Shown: positions 4,501-38,478 of the stretch, one piece after another | How the letters are laid out: each line of letters starts with the position of its first letter | Numbering within the stretch: the first letter of the stretch is position 1 | Made by a program: the position numbers and the translations under genes | Notes under the pieces: generated by a model | What the model was told of the DNA's origin: nothing | The model's database searches: none | The model's input: the letters and a program-made list of their open reading frames with translations, nothing else | Source of the DNA: an uncultured Acidimicrobiaceae bacterium | GTDB taxonomy: Bacteria; Actinomycetota; Acidimicrobiia; Acidimicrobiales; RAAP-2 | Length of the DNA stretch: 64,000 nucleotides | NCBI GenBank assembly: GCA_963776225.1 | Contig: CAVZLL010000002.1 | Coordinates: 151,585 to 215,584, forward strand | Reading direction: 5' to 3'

Positions 4501-5987
4501 GGGGCCGCCGCGCGCACCAGGTCGAAGAGCGTGTCGACCTCGCACTCCTCGGCTGCGGCGACCTCTGCCACCAGCTGCTGGGCGAGGATGTCGACCGGCG
4601 TGGACGGCGGGTGGAGCTCGTCGAGGTTCCCGGCACGCACCCCGGCCAGGAGCGCGGTGCACTCGACCAGCTCGTCGCGGGTGAGCGGGTAGAGACGGCC
4701 GGCAGGTGTCCCCTCCAGACGGTGGTTGGCCCGACCCACCCGCTGCAGGAAGGTGGCGATCGCCCGCGGCGACCCGATCTGGCAGACCAGCTCCACCGGA
4801 CCGACGTCGATCCCGAGCTCGAGCGAGGCGGTGGCCACCAGGGCACGCAGGTCGCCGGCACGGAGGCGCTGCTCGACGATCCGGCGGCGGGCCGCCGACA
4901 GGCTGCCGTGGTGGGCGGCCACCTGCAGGGCCGCGTCGACCGGGTCGCCCTCACCACCCGGCCGGGTCCGCGCCACCTCCGGGAGCCCCTCGGCGCCGGG
5001 ACTCTCGTCCGGGCCGTCCTCGTCCGGCGCACCCAGTCGCAGGGCGAGCTGATGGGCGACCCGCTCCGCCATCTTGCGGGTGTTCACGAAGACGAGGGTG
5101 GTCCGGTGGTCCAGGACGTGGTCGGCGATCCGGTCGAGGACGTCCCCGAGCTGGGCCCCGCTGGCCACCGACTCGAGCTCGCTGTCGGGGAGCTCGATCG
5201 AGACGTCGAGGTCGCGTGCGTGACCGCAGTCGACGACGGTCGTCGGGCGAGCGGTGGGGTCGGCGCCCGAGAGGAGCCGGGCTACAACCGACAGGGGACG
5301 CTGGGTGGCCGAGAGCCCGATCCGCTGCACCTTGCCCCCGTGGGCGGCGACCAGGTGGGTCAACCGCTCGAGGGTGAGGGCCAGATGCGACCCGCGCTTG
5401 TCCCGGGCCAGGGTGTGGACCTCGTCGACGATGACCGTGTGGACGCCGGTCAGGATCGCCCGCGACGAGGCCGCGGTCAGCAGGAGATAGAGCGATTCCG
5501 GGGTGGTCACCAGCAGGTCGGGCGGGGATCGGCGCATCGCGGTCCGCTCGGCGGCCGGGGTGTCCCCGGTGCGGACGGCCACCGACAGCTCCGGTGCGGA
5601 GAGCCCGAGCCGGTCCGCCTCGGCGGAGATCCCGGCGAGAGGGATCTCCAGGTTCTCGCGCACGTCGACGGCGAGGGCCCGCAGCGGCGAGACGTAGACG
5701 ACGCCGGGCCCGGCGGCCGGTGGTTCCGGCTCGTCCGTCGCCGCCAGGGTGTCCGGGATCGTCGCCGGGCAGGCGAGCGCCGCGGCGTGGGCGCGGTAGG
5801 CGGCGTCGATTGCCACGAGGAACCCGGTCAGGGTCTTGCCGGTGCCGGTCGGCGATGCCACCAGCACGTCGCCCCCCTCCTGGATGCGCGGCCAGGCCGC
5901 GCGCTGGGGCTGGGTCGGCCCGGCGGGGAAGCGGCGGTCGAACCAGCTGGCCACCGCCGGATGGAACGTGCGGAGAATCGGGTCCAC
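1515..5987 (-). CDS. lhr: Lhr-type large ATP-dependent DEAH-box helicase
   Basis: Uninterrupted 1490-aa ORF. Walker A is ASPTGTGKT, the DEVH box is present, and length and N-terminus (FHPAVASWF...PTQPQRAAWP) are typical of Lhr. Confidence 0.95.
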   Translation of the reverse strand: MDPILRTFHPAVASWFDRRFPAGPTQPQRAAWPRIQEGGDVLVASPTGTGKTLTGFLVAIDAAYRAHAAALACPATIPDTLAATDEPEPPAAGPGVVYVSPLRALAVDVRENLEIPLAGISAEADRLGLSAPELSVAVRTGDTPAAERTAMRRSPPDLLVTTPESLYLLLTAASSRAILTGVHTVIVDEVHTLARDKRGSHLALTLERLTHLVAAHGGKVQRIGLSATQRPLSVVARLLSGADPTARPTTVVDCGHARDLDVSIELPDSELESVASGAQLGDVLDRIADHVLDHRTTLVFVNTRKMAERVAHQLALRLGAPDEDGPDESPGAEGLPEVARTRPGGEGDPVDAALQVAAHHGSLSAARRRIVEQRLRAGDLRALVATASLELGIDVGPVELVCQIGSPRAIATFLQRVGRANHRLEGTPAGRLYPLTRDELVECTALLAGVRAGNLDELHPPSTPVDILAQQLVAEVAAAEECEVDTLFDLVRAAAPYGALTREVFDDVVDLVSWGITTGRGRRGAHLHHDAVNGRLRARRGARLAALTSGGAIPETGDYRVVLDPEGTTVGSVHEDFAVEATAGDIFLLGTHSWRVAKVETGVVRVSDAGDLPPSIPFWLGEAPARTAELSDEVSALRAALEPLLAAGDGEGARTLVRARAGVSEEVAAQVAAYLGAGLAALGALPTRDRLVIERVFDEVEGSQLIVHAPYGGRVNRALGLALRKRFCVSFDFELQAAADDDTVVLSLGPQHSFPLSDVPRMLQSRTAPEVLTQAVLPHPMLGARWRWNLTRALVVPRSRGGKRRPIHLQRMEADDLLAAAWPALAACQENAGAGPVGVPDHVLVRQTIHDCLTEPLDATGLVALLEDLESGKVAVHCVESVEPSPLSHGILTGKPYTYLDGAPLEERRSRAVPVPRGLPALGPSGLPDGLPVDPSELGPLDGAAAAEVLDQVQPRPRGTDELHDLLLSLVLARPVAAWRHWFEELAADGRALVVGSSWAATERRARAEELAASLDDPMVDSDEALAECVRGHLEVAGPVSVEELVSEGELPAGTLRGAPLPVGRARSGLARLEASGSAIALPDGRWCARHLLVRLHAASRSRRRRRVEAATIGELVRFVACWQHVAAGTQAEGRAGLLSVIEQLQGIEVAAGEWERRVLPSRVAGYDPRWLDELCLSGEVTWGRLTPRPDQSRPEQGGTGDGSGGEHAARRGSATPSPATPLAIVTREDMPWMLAAVRTGEGPAEPTHGAAAEVLAVLRERGACFRSELAPATGRLSTDADEGLWDLVARGLVTADAFSAVRSLLSSRTRGVPGRGRAATRRAGLGRRRAAIGTGVGEGRWSLLPDPDVQAGAPVTGPPAEELAEAVAWQLLARWGVVCWELWAREPYRVPWRDVIRALRRLEARGQALGGRFVAGLSGEQYASPDAAALLAEVRRDPSRGAEVTIAGADPLNLTGGVLEGPRVPSVRHREVSYRDGLPAASGVAVPAG

Positions 5988-11692: not shown

Positions 11693-12210
11693 GCCGCCGC
11701 CTCCGGGCCCGGGCCGTCCCGAGACGGGCCGAGGCGCGGGATCGGGCGCTCCTCGATCCCGCGCAGGTGGAGGGCACGACGTTCGAAGCGCCATCCGCCC
11801 TCCGTCCGCACGTACACGTCGGCATACCGCAGGTACCAGACGGTGTCGGTGCCGGGAGCGTCGCCGCCCCCCGGGTCCGTGCGTGCGGCGAGGTGGTGGG
11901 CCACGCCGATCACCTCGCCGGAGGCAGCGTCCGCGTCGATCTCGTAGCTGGTCCGGCCCACCCGGTGATGGGTCGCATGGAAGCGGGCGAGGCCGGACGG
12001 GACCCGTCGCAGCGACCGGTGGCCACGCCGGCAGATCACCGGATCGGGCCCGGCCGCCGGATCGGGCACCCAGAGCTCACCCTCGGGGAGGAAGAGCGCG
12101 GCGAACCCCGCACCGTCGAGGGTGTCGACCGCAGCGGCGTAGCCGGTCGAGAGCCGGCGGAGCGAGCGCTCGTCCCCTGGCGCTCCGTTCACCGGACCGG
12201 CCGGTGTCAC
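11650..12210 (-). CDS. SnoaL-like / NTF2-fold protein
   Basis: The pattern LRRLSTGYAAAVDTLDGAGFAALFLPEG ... YLRYADVYVRTEGGWRFERR is typical of SnoaL_4-like proteins. GTG start is inferred. The 3' end overlaps the convergent citrate synthase gene by about 40 nt. Confidence 0.6.
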   Translation of the reverse strand: MTPAGPVNGAPGDERSLRRLSTGYAAAVDTLDGAGFAALFLPEGELWVPDPAAGPDPVICRRGHRSLRRVPSGLARFHATHHRVGRTSYEIDADAASGEVIGVAHHLAARTDPGGGDAPGTDTVWYLRYADVYVRTEGGWRFERRALHLRGIEERPIPRLGPSRDGPGPEAAAQATGTGRGADGPT

Positions 12211-12232
12211 CCGGCCGCCGAGTCCACCCGTT

Positions 12233-13129
12233 TCAACCACCCGTCTGCCGCGGGAGGGCGAACCGGTCGGCGAACACAGAGAGCTCCTCACGGATGTGGT
12301 CGAGGTCGGCGCTCATCGAGGTCGAGAGGAGCATCCGGTCGACGCCGGCTGCCGACGCGGCGGCCACATCCTCCTCGGTGACGCTCGGGAGGTAGCCGGA
12401 CACCGAGAGCTCGATCGCGTTCGGATCCCGCCCGGCCGCCTCGGCCGCCTCGCGCATCTGGCCGACGCGGACCTCGAGCTCGGCGGGGGCGAGCCCGAGC
12501 GGCTGGAAGCCGTCGCCGAGCCGACCCGCCCGTCGCGCCGCTGCCTCGCTGTGACCCCCGACGTGGAGGGGCACTCCCCCGGGCCGCACCGGCTTGGGGA
12601 AGGAGTGGGCATGGCGGAAGGCGACGAAGGCTCCGTCGAACGCCGCCCCCTCCGGACCCGAGTCGGCCCAGAGGGCGCGGAGGGCCGCGATCGTCTCGTC
12701 GGTCCGCCGCCCCCGGGTGCGGGGATCGGCCCCGGTGGCCCGCAGCTCCTCCTCCATCCACCCGACCCCGAGGCACATCCGCACCCGGCCCTTCGAGAGC
12801 ACGTCGACGGTGGCGATGCGCTTGGCCAGGACCACCGCCTGGTGGTTGGGCACGACCAGGACGCCCGTGGCGAGGGTGATCCGACCGGTCACGGCGGCGA
12901 GGAACGCCATCAGGTCGAGCGGGTCGGGGATCCGGCAGTCGTCGGGCAACGGCATCCGTCCCGACGGCGCATAGGGATAGGTGCTCGTGTAGTCGGAGAT
13001 GACCACGGCGTGCTCGACCATCACCAGGCACTCGAACCCGCTCGCCTCGGCGTGGCGGGCGAACCCGGTCATCCAGCCGGGGTCGGCGGTCACTCCGGTG
13101 CGGACCGGGGGGATGATGCCGAACTCCAT
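12233..13129 (-). CDS. LLM-class (luciferase-like) F420-dependent oxidoreductase
   Basis: The C-terminal 298 aa of ORF 12233..14413 (MEFGIIPP...GVGWMEEE...) look coding and GGAGGAG precedes the ATG. The upstream 428 aa of that ORF are Arg/Gly-rich shadow. Confidence 0.85.
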   Translation of the reverse strand: MEFGIIPPVRTGVTADPGWMTGFARHAEASGFECLVMVEHAVVISDYTSTYPYAPSGRMPLPDDCRIPDPLDLMAFLAAVTGRITLATGVLVVPNHQAVVLAKRIATVDVLSKGRVRMCLGVGWMEEELRATGADPRTRGRRTDETIAALRALWADSGPEGAAFDGAFVAFRHAHSFPKPVRPGGVPLHVGGHSEAAARRAGRLGDGFQPLGLAPAELEVRVGQMREAAEAAGRDPNAIELSVSGYLPSVTEEDVAAASAAGVDRMLLSTSMSADLDHIREELSVFADRFALPRQTGG

Positions 13130-27355: not shown

Positions 27356-28048
27356 GTGGACGCACCCTCCGAGAAGCAGCTGCTGCGCTGGAGCGAGACG
27401 CTGGCCGGCATCGCCCGGACCGGGCTCGGGTTCACCGAATCCCTCTACGAACGTGAGCGCTTCGAGGAGGTCCTGCACGTCGCGGCCGACATCCGCATGG
27501 CGCTCGACGACATCGACGGCGCCCAGGACGTGCACGGCATCGTCGAGGAGTGGCTCGACACGGTGGGTGCCGGGGTCCCCGGGTACGTCACCCCGAAGGT
27601 GGCCGTCGGTGCGGCGGTCGGGAACGACAAGGGTGAGATCCTGCTCGTGCGGCGGGCCGACTCGGGAGTGTGGCTCTACCCGACCGGTTGGGCAGACATC
27701 GGCTACTCGGCCGCAGAGGTCGTGGTCAAGGAGGTGCTCGAGGAGACCGGCATCGAGGCCGAGGTGGTCCGCCTGATCGCCGTCCTCGACGGGCTCCGCC
27801 TCGGGATCAGCCGGATCCCCCTCTACTCGCTGGTCTTCCAGTGCCGCGCAGTCGGCGGCGAGCTCCGGGCGCACCCGCTCGAGTGCTCCGACGTCGGCTG
27901 GTTCTCGCTCGACGAGCTCCCCTATCCGCTGGCCGGAGCCGAGCGGTGGGGTGCCCACGTGTTCGCCGCGCTGCGGGGCGATCCGATCGAGGTGCTCTAC
28001 GACCCGGTGCGCTCGCCGGTCTGGCGCGGGGATCCCAGCAAGGGATGA
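27356..28048 (+). CDS. NUDIX hydrolase with N-terminal helical extension
   Basis: Nudix box GWADIGYSAAEVVVKEVLEETGIEAE. GTG start is inferred. Confidence 0.85.
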   Translation: MDAPSEKQLLRWSETLAGIARTGLGFTESLYERERFEEVLHVAADIRMALDDIDGAQDVHGIVEEWLDTVGAGVPGYVTPKVAVGAAVGNDKGEILLVRRADSGVWLYPTGWADIGYSAAEVVVKEVLEETGIEAEVVRLIAVLDGLRLGISRIPLYSLVFQCRAVGGELRAHPLECSDVGWFSLDELPYPLAGAERWGAHVFAALRGDPIEVLYDPVRSPVWRGDPSKG

Positions 28049-28145
28049 GGCCGTCCGGTCCCGGCGGTCCGCGCAGACGTCGGCCGTGAACCGTCCGGTC
28101 GGCTCGTCGGTCGGCTCGCCCGTCGGCTCGCCCGCGTCGAGCGGG

Positions 28146-29818: not shown

Positions 29819-31018
29819 ATGCTCATCGACGGGCTCCGCCGGGTCACCGACCATCTCCGGTCCTCCCTGGCCGACCTCGACCCCGAGCGTCTCAGCGGAG
29901 GCGACGCCGCCTGTCTGCTCGAGGCCTATGCGGAGGTCGAGCGCCTGGCCGCGGCCGGCAAGCTCCTCGCGGCACGCCGCGTGGAGTCCTCCAACATCTG
30001 GCGGCGCACCGGCCACCGCTCCGCGGCCGCCCACGTCGCCGAGGCCACCGGCACCGGACTGGGGCCGGCGATCACCGCGCTCGAGACGGCCCGGAATCTC
30101 GGCTCCCTGCCCGCCACCGATCAGGCGGTGCGTCAGGGAAAGCTCTCCGAGAGCCAGGTCAAGGAGATCGCCGGCGCGGCGATCCTCGAGCCCGGTGCCG
30201 AGCACGACCTGGTGGAGACGGCCGGTCGACAGCCGCTCAGCGTCCTCAAGCTCCGCTGCCGTCGGGTGAAGGCGGGCCGCCAGGACCAGCACAGCTCCTA
30301 CGAGGCCATCCGGAGGGGCCGCTACCTCCGCAACTGGGTGGACGGGGACGGAGCGGTCCGCTTCGACGCCCGCCTCACCCCGGACGAGGGAGCCCGCCTC
30401 CTGGCCTCGGTCAAGGGGGAGGCCGACCGCATCGCCGCCGACGCACGCCGGGCCGGCCTCCACGAGGCGCGCCGCGCCCTCGACGCCGACGCCCTGGTCT
30501 CTCTGGCGTGCGGCGGGGCGAGCGCAGGCGGTCACGGAGCCGACGGTCCCGGGGCCATGGTCCACGTCCGTGTCGACCACGCCGCGCTGGTCCGCGGCCG
30601 GGTCGAGCCGGGGGAGCTCTGCGAGATCCCGGGGATCGGCCCGATCCCGGTCGAGGTGGCACGGCGTCTGGCGGTCGACTCGATCCTGAGCGTCCTCGTC
30701 ACCGACGGGGTCGACGTCACCGGTGTGGCCCACACCGGCCGCACGATCCCGGCACCGCTCCGAAGGGCCCTCGCCGAACGGGATCCGGTCTGCGTCGTCC
30801 CCGGGTGCGGCAGCCGCGAAGGCTTGGAGATCGATCATGTGACCCCGTACGCCGACGGCGGGAAGGCGAGCATGGAGAACCTGGTCCGGCTCTGCCATTG
30901 GCACCACTACCTCAAGACGCACCACCGGCACGGCCTCGAACACGACGGTGACGGCTGGCGCTGGATCGCGCCCGACGATCCACCCAGGGTGCCGCCGCGG
31001 ATCCTCCGGTCGGGTTGA
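29819..31018 (+). CDS. DUF222 + HNH endonuclease (REP13E12-like family)
   Basis: N-terminal DUF222-like helical region. C-terminal CVVPGCGSREGLEIDHVTPYADGGKASMENLVRLCHWHH is the HNH motif. Confidence 0.85.
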   Translation: MLIDGLRRVTDHLRSSLADLDPERLSGGDAACLLEAYAEVERLAAAGKLLAARRVESSNIWRRTGHRSAAAHVAEATGTGLGPAITALETARNLGSLPATDQAVRQGKLSESQVKEIAGAAILEPGAEHDLVETAGRQPLSVLKLRCRRVKAGRQDQHSSYEAIRRGRYLRNWVDGDGAVRFDARLTPDEGARLLASVKGEADRIAADARRAGLHEARRALDADALVSLACGGASAGGHGADGPGAMVHVRVDHAALVRGRVEPGELCEIPGIGPIPVEVARRLAVDSILSVLVTDGVDVTGVAHTGRTIPAPLRRALAERDPVCVVPGCGSREGLEIDHVTPYADGGKASMENLVRLCHWHHYLKTHHRHGLEHDGDGWRWIAPDDPPRVPPRILRSG

Positions 31019-31024
31019 GGACAC

Positions 31025-32335
31025 CTACGCGGGTTCGTCGTCCCCCTCGAACACATCGGCTCCGGCGCCTTCAGGGGTCGCGCCGTGCTCCGACCGCCAG
31101 AGCGCTTCCGCGCGGAAGGCAAGCTCGCGGAGGGGCCTCCCGGTCCGCCGGGCTGCCAGCCTCACGTCCTCGTGCTCGGCCTTGATCCGGTCCGCGCTCA
31201 CCTTGACGCGGATCAGCTGACCGTCCACCAGGACCGACTCGATCGAGCGGGCCGCAGGCCACCGTTCGCCCGTGCTGAGGCGCACCCCGAGCGAGCCGGT
31301 CTCCGACCGCAGGACGCCGCGCAGCTCGCGGACCCGGGCCGGGTCGCAGAGGACGTGGACCAGGTGTCCCGGCCGGCCCTTCTTCATGAGCACGGGCGAC
31401 AGCCAGGCATCGTGGGCCCCGGCCTCGAGCAGGCGCTCGATCGCGTGGGCGAGCTGCTCGCCGGTGGCGTCGTCGACGGCCACTTCGAGGAGCGCGACCG
31501 GCTGCCCGGCGTCCGCCTCCGAGCCGTCGGGGTCCCCCGGTGAGACCCCTCCCGGCGCGTCGGTCCGCCGACCGGTGACCACCTGGGTGCAGTTGGGCAG
31601 CTCATCGAGCTCGCGCCGTCCGGCACCGAACCCCTGGCGGTCCACCAGCATGGGCGGCATCGGGCCGTAGCCCGAGGAGAGCGCCGCCAGGAGCGCGGCG
31701 CCGGTCGGTGTGGTGAGCTCGACGGCGATGTCCCGGCCCCAGGTGGGCACGCCCTTCAGGAGCCCGACCACTGCCGGAGCCGGGTTGGGGAGCATCCCGT
31801 GGGCAGTCCGCACCATCCCCATCCCGATAGCCACCGGACTGGCCCGCACCTCGTCGATGTCGAGGACCTCGAGGGCCGCGGCGGTCCCGACCACGTCGAT
31901 GATCGAGTCGTGTCCACCGACCTCGTGGAAGTGGACCTGGTCGATCGGGCGGCGGTGGATGCCGGCCTCGACCTCGGCGAGCGCTCCGAAGGTCGCCAGG
32001 GCACGGGCGGCGACCCGCTCGGGCAACCGTGCCTCCTCGACCAGCCCCACGATGTGCGCGTAGGTGCGGACGACCACGTGGTCCTGGACCGTGACCACCG
32101 CCCGGCTGGCCGCGATGCCGCCCCGGAGCACCGGTTCGACCTCGAGGGCCCACCCGCCGAACGGGAGCCGTTCGAGCAGCGCGAGCACCTCGTCGATCTC
32201 GGCGCCGGCGTCGATGAGGCTGCCGAGGGCCATGTCCCCGGCGATCCCTGCGAAGCAGTGGAACCAGGCGAGCGAGCGAGCGCCGTGAGCGGGCGGTGGG
32301 ACGGGCCTCACGACCGGCGTGCGCACTCTCCTCAC
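31025..32335 (-). CDS. larC: LarC, nickel-pincer cofactor nickel insertion protein (DUF111)
   Basis: FHCFAGIAGDMALGSLIDAG ... HFHEVGGHDSIIDVVG ... TPTGAALL. The GTG start lies inside the last 14-nt repeat unit. Confidence 0.9.
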   Translation of the reverse strand: MRRVRTPVVRPVPPPAHGARSLAWFHCFAGIAGDMALGSLIDAGAEIDEVLALLERLPFGGWALEVEPVLRGGIAASRAVVTVQDHVVVRTYAHIVGLVEEARLPERVAARALATFGALAEVEAGIHRRPIDQVHFHEVGGHDSIIDVVGTAAALEVLDIDEVRASPVAIGMGMVRTAHGMLPNPAPAVVGLLKGVPTWGRDIAVELTTPTGAALLAALSSGYGPMPPMLVDRQGFGAGRRELDELPNCTQVVTGRRTDAPGGVSPGDPDGSEADAGQPVALLEVAVDDATGEQLAHAIERLLEAGAHDAWLSPVLMKKGRPGHLVHVLCDPARVRELRGVLRSETGSLGVRLSTGERWPAARSIESVLVDGQLIRVKVSADRIKAEHEDVRLAARRTGRPLRELAFRAEALWRSEHGATPEGAGADVFEGDDEPA

Positions 32336-32429
32336 GCCATCCTCCTCACGCCGTCCTCCTCACACCGTCGTCCTCACGCCATCCTCCTCACGCCGTCCTC
32401 CTCACGCCGTCCTCCTCACGCCGTCCTCC
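32332..32429 (-). repeat. 7 tandem copies of a 14-nt unit GGAGGACGGCGTGA filling the whole larB-larC gap
   Basis: Plus strand reads TCACGCC(G/A)TCCTCC x7, with one unit TCACACCGTCGTCC. Coordinates are anchored on the ORF-track larC start (32335) and the larB stop (32430-32432). Confidence 0.9.
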
Positions 32430-33248
32430 TCACGGCAGCATCCGGGCGACCGCACACGCTGCGCCGAAGCCGTTGTCGATGCCGACGACGGTGATTCCCG
32501 CCGCGCACGACGCGTGCATGGCCAGGAGGGCGGTGACGCCTTCGAGCGCCGCGCCGTACCCGGTGCTGGTCGGGACGGCGACGACCGGAGCGGGTGTGAT
32601 CCCACCGACCAGGCTGGCGAGCGCGCCCTCCATCCCTGCCACCACCACGACCGCGTCGGCCTCGGCCAGCTCCTCGGCCGAGGCCAGCATCCGATGCACG
32701 CCGGCCACGCCGCAGTCGGGGAGCAGCGTCGGACGGAACCCGAGCGCGGTGAGGGTGGCCTCGCACTCACGGGCCACGGGCAGGTCGGAGGTCCCGGCGG
32801 TGACCACCAGGGTGCGGGACGGGCGCGCGGCGGCGGGGCGCCACACCACGGTCGAGAGCTCCCCCCTGACCTGGTCGGCGCCGGTGGCCGTTCCGGTGAC
32901 CGTCCGCAGGCCACCGGGGTGGTCGGCCGTGACGGCTCCCACCTGTTCCCCGTCGGCACGGGTCAGGATCACCGGGGCACTGCCGGTGGCGCCCTCCGCC
33001 GGGGTGCCGCCGGGCACCGCGGTGCCCTCGGCGAGGAGCTCACCCACGATCGCCGCGCACTGGGCTGCCGACTTGCCCTGCCCGTAGACGGCCTCGGGAA
33101 GACCCAACCTCAGGTGCCGGTGGTGGTCCACCTTGGCGAACCCGAGATCGGCGAACGGGAGGCGCCGCAGTCGGAGGACTGCGTCGTCGGGGGTGCACCC
33201 GCCCGAGCGCACGTCGTCGAGCAGGCGTTGCAGCGCAGGTTCGTCCAT
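32430..33248 (-). CDS. larB: LarB, pyridinium-3,5-biscarboxylic acid mononucleotide synthase (AIR-carboxylase-like)
   Basis: LPFADLGFAKVDHHRHLRLGLPEAVYGQGK ... VVTAGTSDLPVARE ... VVVAGMEGALASLVGG. The ATG is at residue 14 of the track ORF. Confidence 0.9.
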   Translation of the reverse strand: MDEPALQRLLDDVRSGGCTPDDAVLRLRRLPFADLGFAKVDHHRHLRLGLPEAVYGQGKSAAQCAAIVGELLAEGTAVPGGTPAEGATGSAPVILTRADGEQVGAVTADHPGGLRTVTGTATGADQVRGELSTVVWRPAAARPSRTLVVTAGTSDLPVARECEATLTALGFRPTLLPDCGVAGVHRMLASAEELAEADAVVVVAGMEGALASLVGGITPAPVVAVPTSTGYGAALEGVTALLAMHASCAAGITVVGIDNGFGAACAVARMLP

Positions 33249-33271
33249 GATGTTCACTATCCTGCCTGTGC

Positions 33272-34288
33272 ATGGCCGAGGACGCACCTCCTGGTATCCC
33301 GCCTGGCCGGCCGCTCCGGATCGGGTTCCTCGGCCCGGAGGGGACCTTCACCGAGGAAGCCCTCCTCCGCGAGCCCGAGTACGCCGACGGTGAGATCGTG
33401 CCCCTCGACTCCCTCGCCGACGTGCTCGAGTCGGTGGTCCGGGCCGACGTCGACCTCGGCTTCGTGCCGCTGGAGAACGCGATCGAGGGCACCGTCCGGG
33501 ACATCATCGACAGCCTGGTCTTCGATTACGACCTGCGGATCCAGCGGGAGGTCGTCCTCGACGTCCACCTCCACCTGATGGCCGCACCGGGCACCGCGCT
33601 CAGCGACGTCGAGCGGGTGGCCTCGATCCCCGTGGCGACGGCCCAGTGCCGCCGATTCCTCAACGAGCGTCTGCCCCAGGTGGAGACGGTGGCCACCAAC
33701 TCCACGGCCGACGCCGCCCGCCTGCTCGGCGAGGGCGACCCCTCGATGACCGCGCGCCCGACCGCGGCCATCGCTCCCCGCCTGGCTGCCAAGCTCTACG
33801 GTCTCGAGATCCTGGCGGACAACATCGAGGACCACCCGGACAACCAGACCCGGTTCGTCTCGCTCGCCCGGACCGGCATCCCCGCCCGGACCGGCCACGA
33901 CCGCACCAGCATCGCCTGCTTCCAGAGCGCAGACCACCCGGGAAGCCTCTACGCCATCCTCGGCCACTTCGCCGCCCGCAGCATCAACCTGACCAAGCTC
34001 GAGTCACGGCCGACCAAGCAGGCGCTCGGCGACTACTGCTTCATCATCGACTTCGAAGGCCACATCGGCGACGCGGTGGTGGCCGACTGCCTCGCGGATC
34101 TGCACGCCGAGCTTGCAGGGGTCAAGTTCCTGGGGTCGTACCCGGTCGCCGGTCCCGCGGGAGCGGCCATACGCGAAGAGGCCGACCAGTCCCGGCGCCA
34201 CGCCACTGCGTGGATGGAGGGGCTGCGGGGCGAGATCGCCACGCGCCGGTCCGGCCCGGGCCCGCCGGCGGGGAGCGAACGTGCGTGA
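33272..34288 (+). CDS. pheA: prephenate dehydratase
   Basis: IGFLGPEGTFTEEA, NQTRFV, and ACT domain LTKLESRPTK. Confidence 0.95.
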   Translation: MAEDAPPGIPPGRPLRIGFLGPEGTFTEEALLREPEYADGEIVPLDSLADVLESVVRADVDLGFVPLENAIEGTVRDIIDSLVFDYDLRIQREVVLDVHLHLMAAPGTALSDVERVASIPVATAQCRRFLNERLPQVETVATNSTADAARLLGEGDPSMTARPTAAIAPRLAAKLYGLEILADNIEDHPDNQTRFVSLARTGIPARTGHDRTSIACFQSADHPGSLYAILGHFAARSINLTKLESRPTKQALGDYCFIIDFEGHIGDAVVADCLADLHAELAGVKFLGSYPVAGPAGAAIREEADQSRRHATAWMEGLRGEIATRRSGPGPPAGSERA

Positions 34289-34345: not shown

Positions 34346-34430
34346 GGAGGGATGGCAGAGCGGACAAATGCGCGGCTCTTGAAAAGCCGTGAGGTGCGAG
34401 CCTCCGTGGGTTCGAATCCCACTCCCTCCG
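34346..34430 (+). tRNA. tRNA-Ser (anticodon UGA)
   Basis: GGAGGGATGGCAGAGCGGACAAATGCGCGGCTCTTGAAAAGCCGTGAGGTGCGAGCCTCCGTGGGTTCGAATCCCACTCCCTCCG. Acceptor stem GGAGGGA/TCCCTCC, anticodon loop CTTGAAA, and a long variable arm. Confidence 0.9.
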
Positions 34431-37247: not shown

Positions 37248-37586
37248 TCAGACCACCGGGCGGACCCGCACCTCGCCCTCGCCCAGGACGCCGAGGAAGC
37301 GCTTGGACCACTCGACGGCCTCGGGAAGGTCGCGGCAGTCCATGATCGCCCAGCCCCCCACCAGCTCCTTGGCCTCGGCGAAGGGCCCGTCGACTACTGA
37401 GTACTGCCCCTCCTTCAACGTGATCCGGGCGCCCTCGGAGGTCGGGGCGATGCCACCGGTGGCGACGATGATGCCGGCTTTGGTCGCCTCCTCCACGAAA
37501 CGACCCATCGTCTCGTAGAGTTCGGGGGACGGGGGCTCGGTCGGGGACTCCGCCTCGTTGGCCAGGGTGTATCCCAGGAATCGCAT
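37248..37586 (-). CDS. YciI/DGPF-domain protein
   Basis: 112 aa, MGRFVEEATKAGIIVATGGIAP...VVDGPFAEAKELVGGWAIMDC is typical of YCII-related proteins. Confidence 0.85.
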   Translation of the reverse strand: MRFLGYTLANEAESPTEPPSPELYETMGRFVEEATKAGIIVATGGIAPTSEGARITLKEGQYSVVDGPFAEAKELVGGWAIMDCRDLPEAVEWSKRFLGVLGEGEVRVRPVV

Positions 37587-37707: not shown

Positions 37708-37788
37708 CCTGGAACGCCTGGAACGCCTGGAACGCCTGGAACGCCTGGAACGCCTGGAACGCCTGGAACGCCTGGAACGCCTGGAACG
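37708..37788. repeat. perfect tandem repeat, 9 copies of 9 nt (CCTGGAACG)
   Basis: Counted directly in the sequence. It lies in the 349-nt divergent intergenic region between yciI (start 37586) and the YceI-like gene (start 37936). Confidence 0.95.
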
Positions 37789-37935
37789 GCACGGCGTGCT
37801 CGCAGTCCGCAGTCACGCCGCCCGAGCGGTCGGACCGGTTGGACCGCTCGATGATGATCCCCTGCTCTCCCTGGTCAGACATGGATGGCGGGGATATGGT
37901 CCAGGTGTACCCAGCGAGCGACACAGGAGGTTCAG

Positions 37936-38478
37936 ATGGCCGACGACTCCACCGCCACTGACGCCCAGGCACTTCTCGCCCATGGGGCAGGCCACTGGAC
38001 CCTCGACCCCGCCGGCTCGTCGATCAGGTTCCACGTCAAGCACTTCTGGGGGTTGATCACCGTGCACGGACGCTTCGAGAAACTCGAGGGCGACGGCACC
38101 GTCGACCCGGACGGGACCGTCTCGGGTCGCCTGACCATCGACGCCACCTCCCTCACCACCAAGAATCGCAGGCGCGACAAGCACCTCCGCTCCGCGGACT
38201 TCTTCGATGTCGAACACCATCCAACGGTGACGGTGACCGTGGACGCGCTCATCCCCGAGGGCGAACGGGGATTTCGTGGCCGTGTCAGCCTCGAAGCGGC
38301 CGGTCGTCGGGCCGATCTTCAACCGACGATCGACGTGGTGAGCGCTTCCAACGACGCCGTCGTCGTTCACTCGGAGGCGGTGGTCGACCGAACGTTGTTC
38401 GACATGACCTGGAACCCGCTCGGGATGACGTCGTCCCAAGCGCGAGGTGAGGTCACGGCCCGCTTCGTGCGGCGCTGA
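37936..38478 (+). CDS. YceI-like polyisoprenoid-binding protein
   Basis: AGGAGG RBS. WTLDPAGSSIRFHVKHFWGLITVHGRFEKLEG...DATSLTTKNRRRDKHLRSADFFDVEHHP. Confidence 0.85.
   Translation: MADDSTATDAQALLAHGAGHWTLDPAGSSIRFHVKHFWGLITVHGRFEKLEGDGTVDPDGTVSGRLTIDATSLTTKNRRRDKHLRSADFFDVEHHPTVTVTVDALIPEGERGFRGRVSLEAAGRRADLQPTIDVVSASNDAVVVHSEAVVDRTLFDMTWNPLGMTSSQARGEVTARFVRR

Follow-up and report, generated by a model that had tools for sequence, protein, structure and literature searches.

The larB-larC junction

The window analyzed here is a 64-kb stretch of DNA from a metagenome-assembled genome (MAG) of an uncultured Acidimicrobiaceae bacterium, in which a tandem array of a 14-nt unit lies between larB and larC, two co-directional nickel-cofactor genes on the minus strand. 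The identities of the genes, which an earlier note on this DNA had placed in one pathway, hold: the product of the longest larB open reading frame (ORF; 32430-33287, minus strand) matches the NCBIfam LarB equivalog NF033503 with 209 bits as well as PF00731, and the 436-aa product of larC (31025-32335, minus strand) matches PF01969 with 398 bits as well as TIGR00299 and NF052512. larB stops at the first TGA of the array region, and larC starts at the last GTG (32335-32333), which is the GTG of the last repeat unit. A 436-aa LarC product identical to that of the window, called from the same last-unit GTG, is on record in NCBI/ENA. LarC carries an N-terminal extension of 20 codons (32276-32335, minus strand) in front of the conserved motif S-L-A-W-F-H-C-F. 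Over the first 21 codons, meaning the extension plus the first conserved codon, larC of the window and of one of its nearest relatives (L001) differ by four synonymous and two conservative changes, which supports translation from the last-unit GTG.

Tandem Repeats Finder and a pattern search bear out the seven-copy array described in the earlier note. In the pattern search, seven gapless head-to-tail units occupy precisely 32332-32429 of the minus strand. The call made by Tandem Repeats Finder spans 32328-32434, with a period of 14, 7.6 copies, 92% matches, and a score of 186, the top score in the window. Matches to the unit with at most two mismatches number 13 in the window, against a mean of 2.5 in shuffled sequences, and none of 100 shuffles reaches 13. 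The unit consensus, read 5'->3' on the coding strand, is GGAGGACGGCGTGA. On that strand larB ends ...CGG ATG CTG CCG TGA, and its TGA is the tail of a partial eighth unit (CTGCCGTGA), as had been proposed; the seven units follow, and then GGAGAGTGCGC. The units are, in order, three copies of GGAGGACGGCGTGA (32416-32429, 32402-32415, and 32388-32401), GGAGGATGGCGTGA (32374-32387), GGACGACGGTGTGA (32360-32373), the consensus again (32346-32359), and GGAGGATGGCGTGA (32332-32345), giving the pattern A A A B C A B. Three units, rather than the two previously reported, depart from the consensus, by 1, 2, and 1 substitutions. The three successive consensus units form 42 nt of perfect repeat, and because the variant units are interspersed, the copy number of the array is uncertain only within these first three identical units. 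As head-to-tail copies of a unit in the 10-100 bp range (period 14 by Tandem Repeats Finder), the array has the form of a minisatellite, or variable-number tandem repeat (VNTR). Downstream, the stretch at 32308-32331 (minus strand; GGAGAGTGCGCACGCCGGTCGTGA) begins with a sequence resembling a decayed unit.

The geometry of the array follows from its unit length. Eight GTGA tetramers are spaced at 14 nt from 32433-32430 to 32335-32332, and a ninth, which ends the post-array stretch and includes the in-frame codon Val9 of LarC, lies 24 nt beyond. Since each 14-nt copy carries GTGA and 14 equals 2 mod 3, the TGA of each unit is in frame with the preceding GTG, and each copy yields a five-codon ORF whose TGA overlaps the next GTG. 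The earlier note had counted six such junctions, a number that holds for the internal ones; the ends at larB and larC bring the GTGA overlaps to eight, which delimit seven mini-ORFs encoding VRRTA (four times), VRRMA (twice), and VRTTV. The same geometry leaves the relay intact at any copy number and changes neither where larB stops nor where and in which frame larC begins, so the claim that a change in copy number would break neither gene stands. TGA codons close each of the three coding-strand frames every 42 nt, and a LarB-LarC fusion by frameshifting or readthrough is thereby excluded. The programmed frameshift between larC1 and larC2 of Lactobacillus plantarum, raised in the earlier note as a precedent, is real (PMC13510736), but it is irrelevant here: models for LarC1 and LarC2, which lie in separate frames in that system, both match the one uninterrupted 436-aa larC ORF.

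Most of the start codons in the array are preceded by a strong Shine-Dalgarno (SD) sequence. Pairing energies were computed for the upstream 16 nt against a canonical 16S 3' end, with the anti-SD assumed to be canonical rather than read from this genome. The first GTGA (32430-32433) has the same form as the RTGA overlap at the larB stop of relatives; here the larB stop TGA (32432-32430) is overlapped by the GTG that opens mini-ORF 1 (32416-32433; GTG AGG AGG ACG GCG TGA, VRRTA), which has no strong SD upstream (-4.6 kcal/mol). Mini-ORF 2 (32402-32419, VRRTA) has GGAGGA 4 nt before its GTG, with a pairing energy of -12.2 kcal/mol, a value shared by mini-ORF 3 (32388-32405, VRRTA), mini-ORF 4 (32374-32391, VRRMA), and mini-ORF 5 (32360-32377, VRTTV). 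The SD of mini-ORF 6 (32346-32363, VRRTA) is weakened to GGACGA (-5.9 kcal/mol). That of mini-ORF 7 (32332-32349, VRRMA) has -12.0 kcal/mol, and the TGA of this last mini-ORF overlaps the larC GTG, itself preceded by GGAGGA at 4 nt (-12.2 kcal/mol). All of these features are on the minus strand. Thus, six of the seven array-borne GTGs, larC start included, pair at about -12 kcal/mol, and GGAGGA is present in 6/7 units, 5 nt before the GTG when counted from GGAGG.

Conservation of the overlap chain in relatives

Is a chain of overlapping stops and starts found at this junction in other genomes? A set of 84 larB-larC loci was assembled from the window, three loci (L001-L003) found by exact-protein look-ups, and 80 species-representative genomes; 82 of these are distinct, since L005 is on the same contig as L002 and L003 matches L001. 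The LarC relatives come from Acidimicrobiales or Acidimicrobiaceae MAGs, and the stretch compared at each locus runs from the larB stop to the conserved LarC motif S/T-x-A-W-F-H-C-F. An unbroken chain of RTGA-type overlaps leads from larB to larC in 83/84 loci, with L080 alone broken. In 66 of the 84, the larB TGA directly overlaps an in-frame larC RTG, an arrangement that represents the ancestral state. The larB stop is TGA in all 84 loci, and the base before it is G in 57 and A in 25 (82/84 together), with C once; the rare codon CCA precedes the larB TGA in 19 loci. An invariant TGA preceded by G or A is the mark of selection for a -4 overlap. The direct in-frame GTGA overlap is also present at three more loci, from metagenomes (LarC calls P0004, P0010, and P0013); their LarC proteins are annotated as starting at 'VAWFHCF', and the broken chains that such a start would imply were rejected because the short start is a choice of the gene caller.

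At 18 loci larC is out of frame with the RTG at the larB stop, and 17 of these reach larC through overlapping short ORFs: one such bridge ORF in 13 loci, two in L063, five in L001/L003, and seven in the window. When the spacers were shuffled, conditional on a viable larC start, an unbroken chain arose in 0-37% of trials per locus, and in ~20% for most loci; the real sequences keep the chain in 14/15 tested non-direct loci, or 17/18 with the array loci (window, L001, and L003) included. The non-direct states are scattered over the LarC tree, at no fewer than eight separate positions. Such a chain is found in 64/65 larB-larC pairs versus 9/79 other co-directional gene pairs from the same DNA, both classes having been called with the same crude GC3-based gene finder. 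Chains of two or more mini-ORFs elsewhere in 556 kb occur at the level of shuffled sequence, except inside tandem repeats.

One clade of six species (L008, L018, L021, L023, L026, and L028) shares a bridge of the form RTGA-N13-RTGA, a six-codon ORF with a fixed 17-nt spacing and no indels (alignment A1). Only 1 of its 13 inner positions is invariant, and the encoded peptides are unrelated (MTTKAP, VSRTVS, MIRATR, VNRTES, VIGTGP, and VSGGGS). What is conserved at the larB-larC junction is geometry, not peptide sequence. This conservation of geometry gives the strongest, albeit indirect, evidence that the passing of ribosomes from one RTGA overlap to the next is important at larB-larC. The comparison, with its 83/84 unbroken chains and independently arisen bridge ORFs, lends indirect support to the termination-reinitiation relay proposed in the earlier note.

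The stretch from the larB stop to the conserved start of LarC is a repeat hotspot across the clade. The LarC N-terminal extension ranges from 0 to 54 codons in length, and in-frame tandem repeats of 12, 15, 18, and 21 nt occur within it in L007, L051, L054, and L036, and such repeats are found in L053 and L068 as well. At L063 (2149-2168), an 8-nt duplication of the junction, which reads ATGAGGCG ATGACGCC GTGA, has produced two three-codon bridge ORFs (MRR and MTP), in effect the window array in miniature, arisen independently. In L023 (380-452, minus strand), a tRNA-like 3' end is directly followed by a further array, three to four copies of a 23-nt unit containing ATGA; the array was considered as a parallel to the relay and set aside because it is beside a tRNA and not at a gene junction.

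Origin and turnover of the array

The nearest relatives of the window locus are L001 and L003, which are separate records (JGI and ENA) with identical arrays and matching flanks where compared. Their LarC is 96% identical to that of the window overall and 97% identical over the conserved region, with flanking DNA at 93-95%. At the same junction they hold a different 14-nt array of ~5.6 units: GGATGCTGCCGTGA, three copies of AGAGCCTGCCGTGA (one a variant), a 9-nt fragment, and GGATGCTGCCGTGA again, followed by larC. The irregular 9-nt unit still keeps the overlap chain, and the two outer GGATGCTGCCGTGA units are identical to the last 14 nt of larB. Units of the window and sister arrays differ at 5/14 positions although the flanks are 94-95% identical, and only the period and CGTGA persist between them. 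The array turns over much faster than the DNA around it.

Where did the copies come from? In L002, L004, and L006, whose conserved LarC region is 85-89% identical, the overlap is direct and an array is absent. The extension is 20 codons long in the window, L001, L002, L004, and L006 alike, which indicates homology between the array's last GTGA and the junction of the ancestor, the copies having been added upstream of it. In the subclade of the window, the final 14 nt of larB already resemble the opening 14 nt of larC, as an imperfect direct repeat with a 14-nt spacing. In L004, for example, the repeat is GGATGCTgCCGTGA|GGATGCTcCGG within a junction that reads GGATGCTgCCGTGAGGATGCTcCGG, the two halves encoding the larB end R-M-L-P-stop and the larC start V-R-M-L. 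Such a repeat is an obvious and ready substrate for slippage. The window unit itself begins GTGAGGAGG, which is the larC start in the lineage of the window and L001 (V-R-R).

Searches for the unit in other places are consistent with a local origin. It does not occur elsewhere in the 64-kb window beyond chance matches with two mismatches; a 161-nt query has no match in 72,556 plasmids; and a generalized pattern, (GGAGG-N5-RTGA)x2-GGAGG, has no match in viral contigs. A dispersed repeat family was ruled out by the absence of the unit from the rest of the window and from those plasmids and viral contigs. A metagenome scan anchored on the end of larB recovered only the L001 contig and no second copy of the window array, and looking up the exact LarC protein of the window gave no contig either. 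The anatomy of the array, its origin in situ, its rapid turnover, and the conservation of the chain at larB-larC are demonstrated by the sequences.

The SD content of the array has a narrower distribution than its geometry. Among the 66 loci with a direct overlap, an SD is essentially absent (the median being -3.3 kcal/mol and the best value -8.1 kcal/mol), and the units of the L001/L003 array carry AGAGCC, with pairing energies of -4 to -6.9 kcal/mol and -6.9 kcal/mol at the larC start. The claim that each junction is preceded by its own GGAGGA is therefore correct for 6/7 units of the window and does not extend to its relatives: the SD-per-unit feature is genuine but confined to the window genome. 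GGAGG also corresponds to larC codons 2-3 (AGG AGG) of the lineage of the window and L001, and it may be incidental, with these codons simply carried along in the duplication.

Proposed mechanism and alternative explanations

The account we favor, with moderate confidence, is that the array is a locus-specific minisatellite that arose in situ by replication slippage of the larB-stop/larC-start overlap and that feeds larC by a relay. Coupling in general is most efficient at spacings of -4 to +3, declines over tens of nucleotides, and is aided by an SD (PMC12548453; PMC6728339). In the proposed relay, ribosomes that finish larB would be handed on by serial termination and reinitiation through the mini-ORFs to larC. 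The embedded GGAGGA would help to retain post-termination ribosomes, and it would admit free 30S subunits at the last unit and at earlier units. The array would be tolerated because each copy repairs the coupling that its insertion would otherwise break. With imperfect hand-offs and new entrants at each SD, output would be expected to saturate after a few units, in which case further copies would be nearly neutral and copy number could drift. Past the first few units, copy number is probably near neutral and not a regulator by design. Relay coupling at larB-larC is supported by the comparison with relatives, and we infer that the mini-ORFs are translated and that reinitiation, beyond de novo initiation at the last SD alone, feeds larC.

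Several points weigh against this account. The exact array of the window is known from one assembly, that of the Acidimicrobiaceae MAG, and the pairing energies depend on the assumed anti-SD. The presence of GGAGGA in 6/7 units, set against the lack of an SD in 66 relatives, could reflect selection for more LarC and not neutrality; similarly, arrays of the same period in two lineages that are ~5-6% diverged could mean that the array is maintained for a benefit. The bar minigenes of phage lambda illustrate the cost of peptidyl-tRNA drop-off. By analogy, seven strong-SD minigenes of five codons might be costly for the same reason, and so not purely neutral. Finally, serial reinitiation over eight junctions could be very inefficient, and the last SD and GTG alone may do the work.

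What else could explain the array? A possible but unlikely alternative is that the array is a copy-number dial, in which the number of units sets the ratio of LarC to LarB translation, by attenuation through imperfect hand-offs or by a boost from the SD entry points, and slippage would allow the ratio to be reset within populations while both genes stay intact. By its geometry any copy number would be viable, the three perfect units in succession (42 nt) are prone to slippage, and the sister lineages do differ in copy number (7 versus ~5.6) and unit sequence. In another actinobacterium, tandem-repeat copy number acts as phase-variable control of expression at promoters (PMC12817950). LarC of L. 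plantarum, unlike LarB, is thought to be a single-turnover protein (PMC11796402), so the cellular demand for LarC may exceed that for LarB, and an SD-rich array that raises LarC would fit such a demand; a boost of LarC relative to LarB is plausible on this analogy, although it is speculation. The sister array, however, lacks an SD, so that copy number there would act with the opposite sign; L001 and L003, from two assemblies, carry identical arrays, and no second copy of the window array was found in the collections scanned; at the 80 other distinct loci, 0-2 bridge ORFs suffice; and the GGAGG may be accounted for by the duplicated larC codons. In a related version, which we regard as doubtful, the junction is selected for hand-over and the 14-nt "SD + GTGA" expansion is an evolvable translational rheostat, with the amount of LarC per LarB set by the number of units and their SD content. 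Were this so, natural cassettes for serial reinitiation would have their smallest member here, and the efficiency of reinitiation at each junction could be measured in a natural setting.

It is improbable that the array is an inert spacer with one ordinary ribosome-binding site, where only the last GGAGGA-N4-GTG matters for de novo LarC initiation and the upstream mini-ORFs are negligible. The last unit does have a near-ideal SD and spacing (-12.2 kcal/mol), the unstructured mRNA makes access of free 30S subunits plausible, and coupling falls with distance (PMC12548453), but all upstream units except one share the strong SD and start codon, and there is no reason for ribosomes to skip them. 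Moreover, no usable SD precedes larC in the sister array (-6.9 kcal/mol), which yet keeps the chain through an irregular unit, and the unbroken chains across the clade argue that hand-over matters at larB-larC. An assembly artefact, in which the assembler expanded a true repeat of one or few units, is very improbable: this is a single MAG assembly with no independent contig found, and tandem repeats are error-prone, but over-expansion does not produce interspersed variant units, a homologous array of the same period is assembled identically in the JGI and ENA records of the sister lineage, and other tandem arrays are found in the window and in related genomes. Least credible is an element of DNA or RNA unrelated to translation, be it protein-binding iterons, a structured RNA, a G-quadruplex, or an internal promoter. 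The seven direct repeats and many GG runs might suggest one, but the unit sequence is unconserved even in the 94-95% identical sister, where the period and CGTGA alone persist, and the G-runs are just 2 long. The predicted RNA fold of the mRNA strand at 32270-32470 is no more stable than shuffled sequence (z = +1.1), and no Rfam family matches the array at E <= 1, the matches in the window being a tRNA (34346-34430) and two chance matches elsewhere; a structured RNA or known RNA family in the array was ruled out on these grounds. There are no promoter- or terminator-like sites between larB and larC, and the array has no TA dinucleotide for a -10 element; an internal promoter or terminator was rejected on this basis.

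Relationship to known systems

The units of mycobacterial interspersed repetitive units (MIRUs) are ~40-100 bp long, and their variable copy number is the basis of MIRU-VNTR typing. The larB-larC unit, by comparison, is 14 nt long. It is little more than an SD and a start/stop, and the host class is Acidimicrobiia. The earlier note knew of no described equivalent to the array, a view that does not hold in light of the review PMC12548453, whose account includes MIRUs, short ORFs that "deliver" ribosomes, and bicistronic designs. As that review summarizes Supply et al. 1997, MIRUs carry an ORF coupled to the flanking gene with a -4 spacing, and the intercistronic repeats of senX3-regX3 are an example. 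On this summary, both are tandem repeats between co-directional genes of an actinobacterial operon, with a short ORF per unit that overlaps its neighbors at -4 (in the array, eight GTGA overlaps and seven mini-ORFs), and just as insertion of a MIRU is said to barely disturb expression thanks to the -4 overlaps, the same would apply to the larB-larC array. MIRUs, however, are found at many dispersed loci and are apparently mobile, whereas the larB-larC unit was made in place and has no other copy in the window. The array works like MIRUs but is not a MIRU.

Similar comparisons can be made with other coupled systems. As in coupled overlapping gene pairs with ATGA/GTGA or TGATG junctions (Huber et al. 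2019, PMC6728339; PMC12548453), every junction of the array is a canonical -4 overlap, and the SD of the next start lies inside the preceding ORF. Known coupled pairs join two real genes by a single junction, whereas the array strings eight together by way of seven five-codon ORFs that are themselves non-functional. In synthetic bicistronic designs, a leader ORF holds the SD of the gene of interest and overlaps its start (PMC12548453, where such designs and delivery ORFs are discussed as a mechanism). Each unit is in structure a minimal cassette of this kind, its short ORF containing the next SD and ending in a stop/start overlap, but the array is natural, tandem, and placed between two genes, not in a 5' leader. 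Contingency loci and the promoter repeats of Mycobacterium tuberculosis (PMC12817950) share with the array a slippage-prone repeat whose copy number could alter expression of an adjacent gene. Such repeats switch expression through a frameshift or through promoter architecture and spacing, whereas copy number at larB-larC alters neither frame nor, apparently, transcription; the promoter repeats are thus a precedent for a dial at the transcriptional and not the translational level. A search of the literature on tandem or multiple SD arrays found nothing relevant.

What are the implications? The array reveals no new kind of system, its principle being found already in MIRUs and in bicistronic designs made by engineering. 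It is nevertheless a very compact natural case of serial stop/start overlaps, with a 14-nt unit that is approximately a ribosome-binding site plus GTGA. Together, the window and its relatives offer a natural series for the study of termination-reinitiation, in which the number of bridge ORFs is 0, 1, 2, 5, or 7 and an SD is present or absent. This series could reveal how efficiently ribosomes are handed on, what the SD contributes, and whether scanning is by 70S or 30S ribosomes, questions that a 2025 review describes as open (PMC12548453). Of greater use, perhaps, is what the comparison shows: a chain kept in 83/84 loci and a 17-nt bridge whose peptide is free to vary in six species indicate that selection acts on the coupling geometry itself at larB-larC. 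For annotation, such arrays explain odd gaps between the genes of an operon and help to place start codons.

Neighboring genes and other repeats

The longest larB ORF, starting at GTG 33287, would overlap the start of the divergent pheA gene at 33272, and the real larB start is probably ATG 33248. That start leaves nearly no divergent promoter region, which hints at leaderless transcripts. A tRNA gene (34346-34430, plus strand; Rfam, 55.9 bits) adjoins pheA. Convergent to larC is a gene encoding a DUF222 and HNH endonuclease protein (29819-31018, plus strand); it is syntenic in L002 and L085 and is therefore not a recent insertion. The crude GC3-based gene finder flagged two more one-step relays between putative co-directional ORFs of the window: ATGA...GTGA with a 14-codon bridge at ~28046-28090 on the plus strand, and TTGA...GTGA at ~12210-12235 on the minus strand.

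Other short-period tandem arrays are present in the window and in related genomes. In L015, an Acidimicrobiales MAG, an intergenic array with a 13/14-nt period is made of GGTGAGTTGCGCC-like units (5841-5960, minus strand). In the window, a perfect (CCTGGAACG)x9 array (37708-37788) lies between two divergent ORFs (37248-37586, minus strand, and 37885-38478, plus strand) and may be a promoter-region VNTR.

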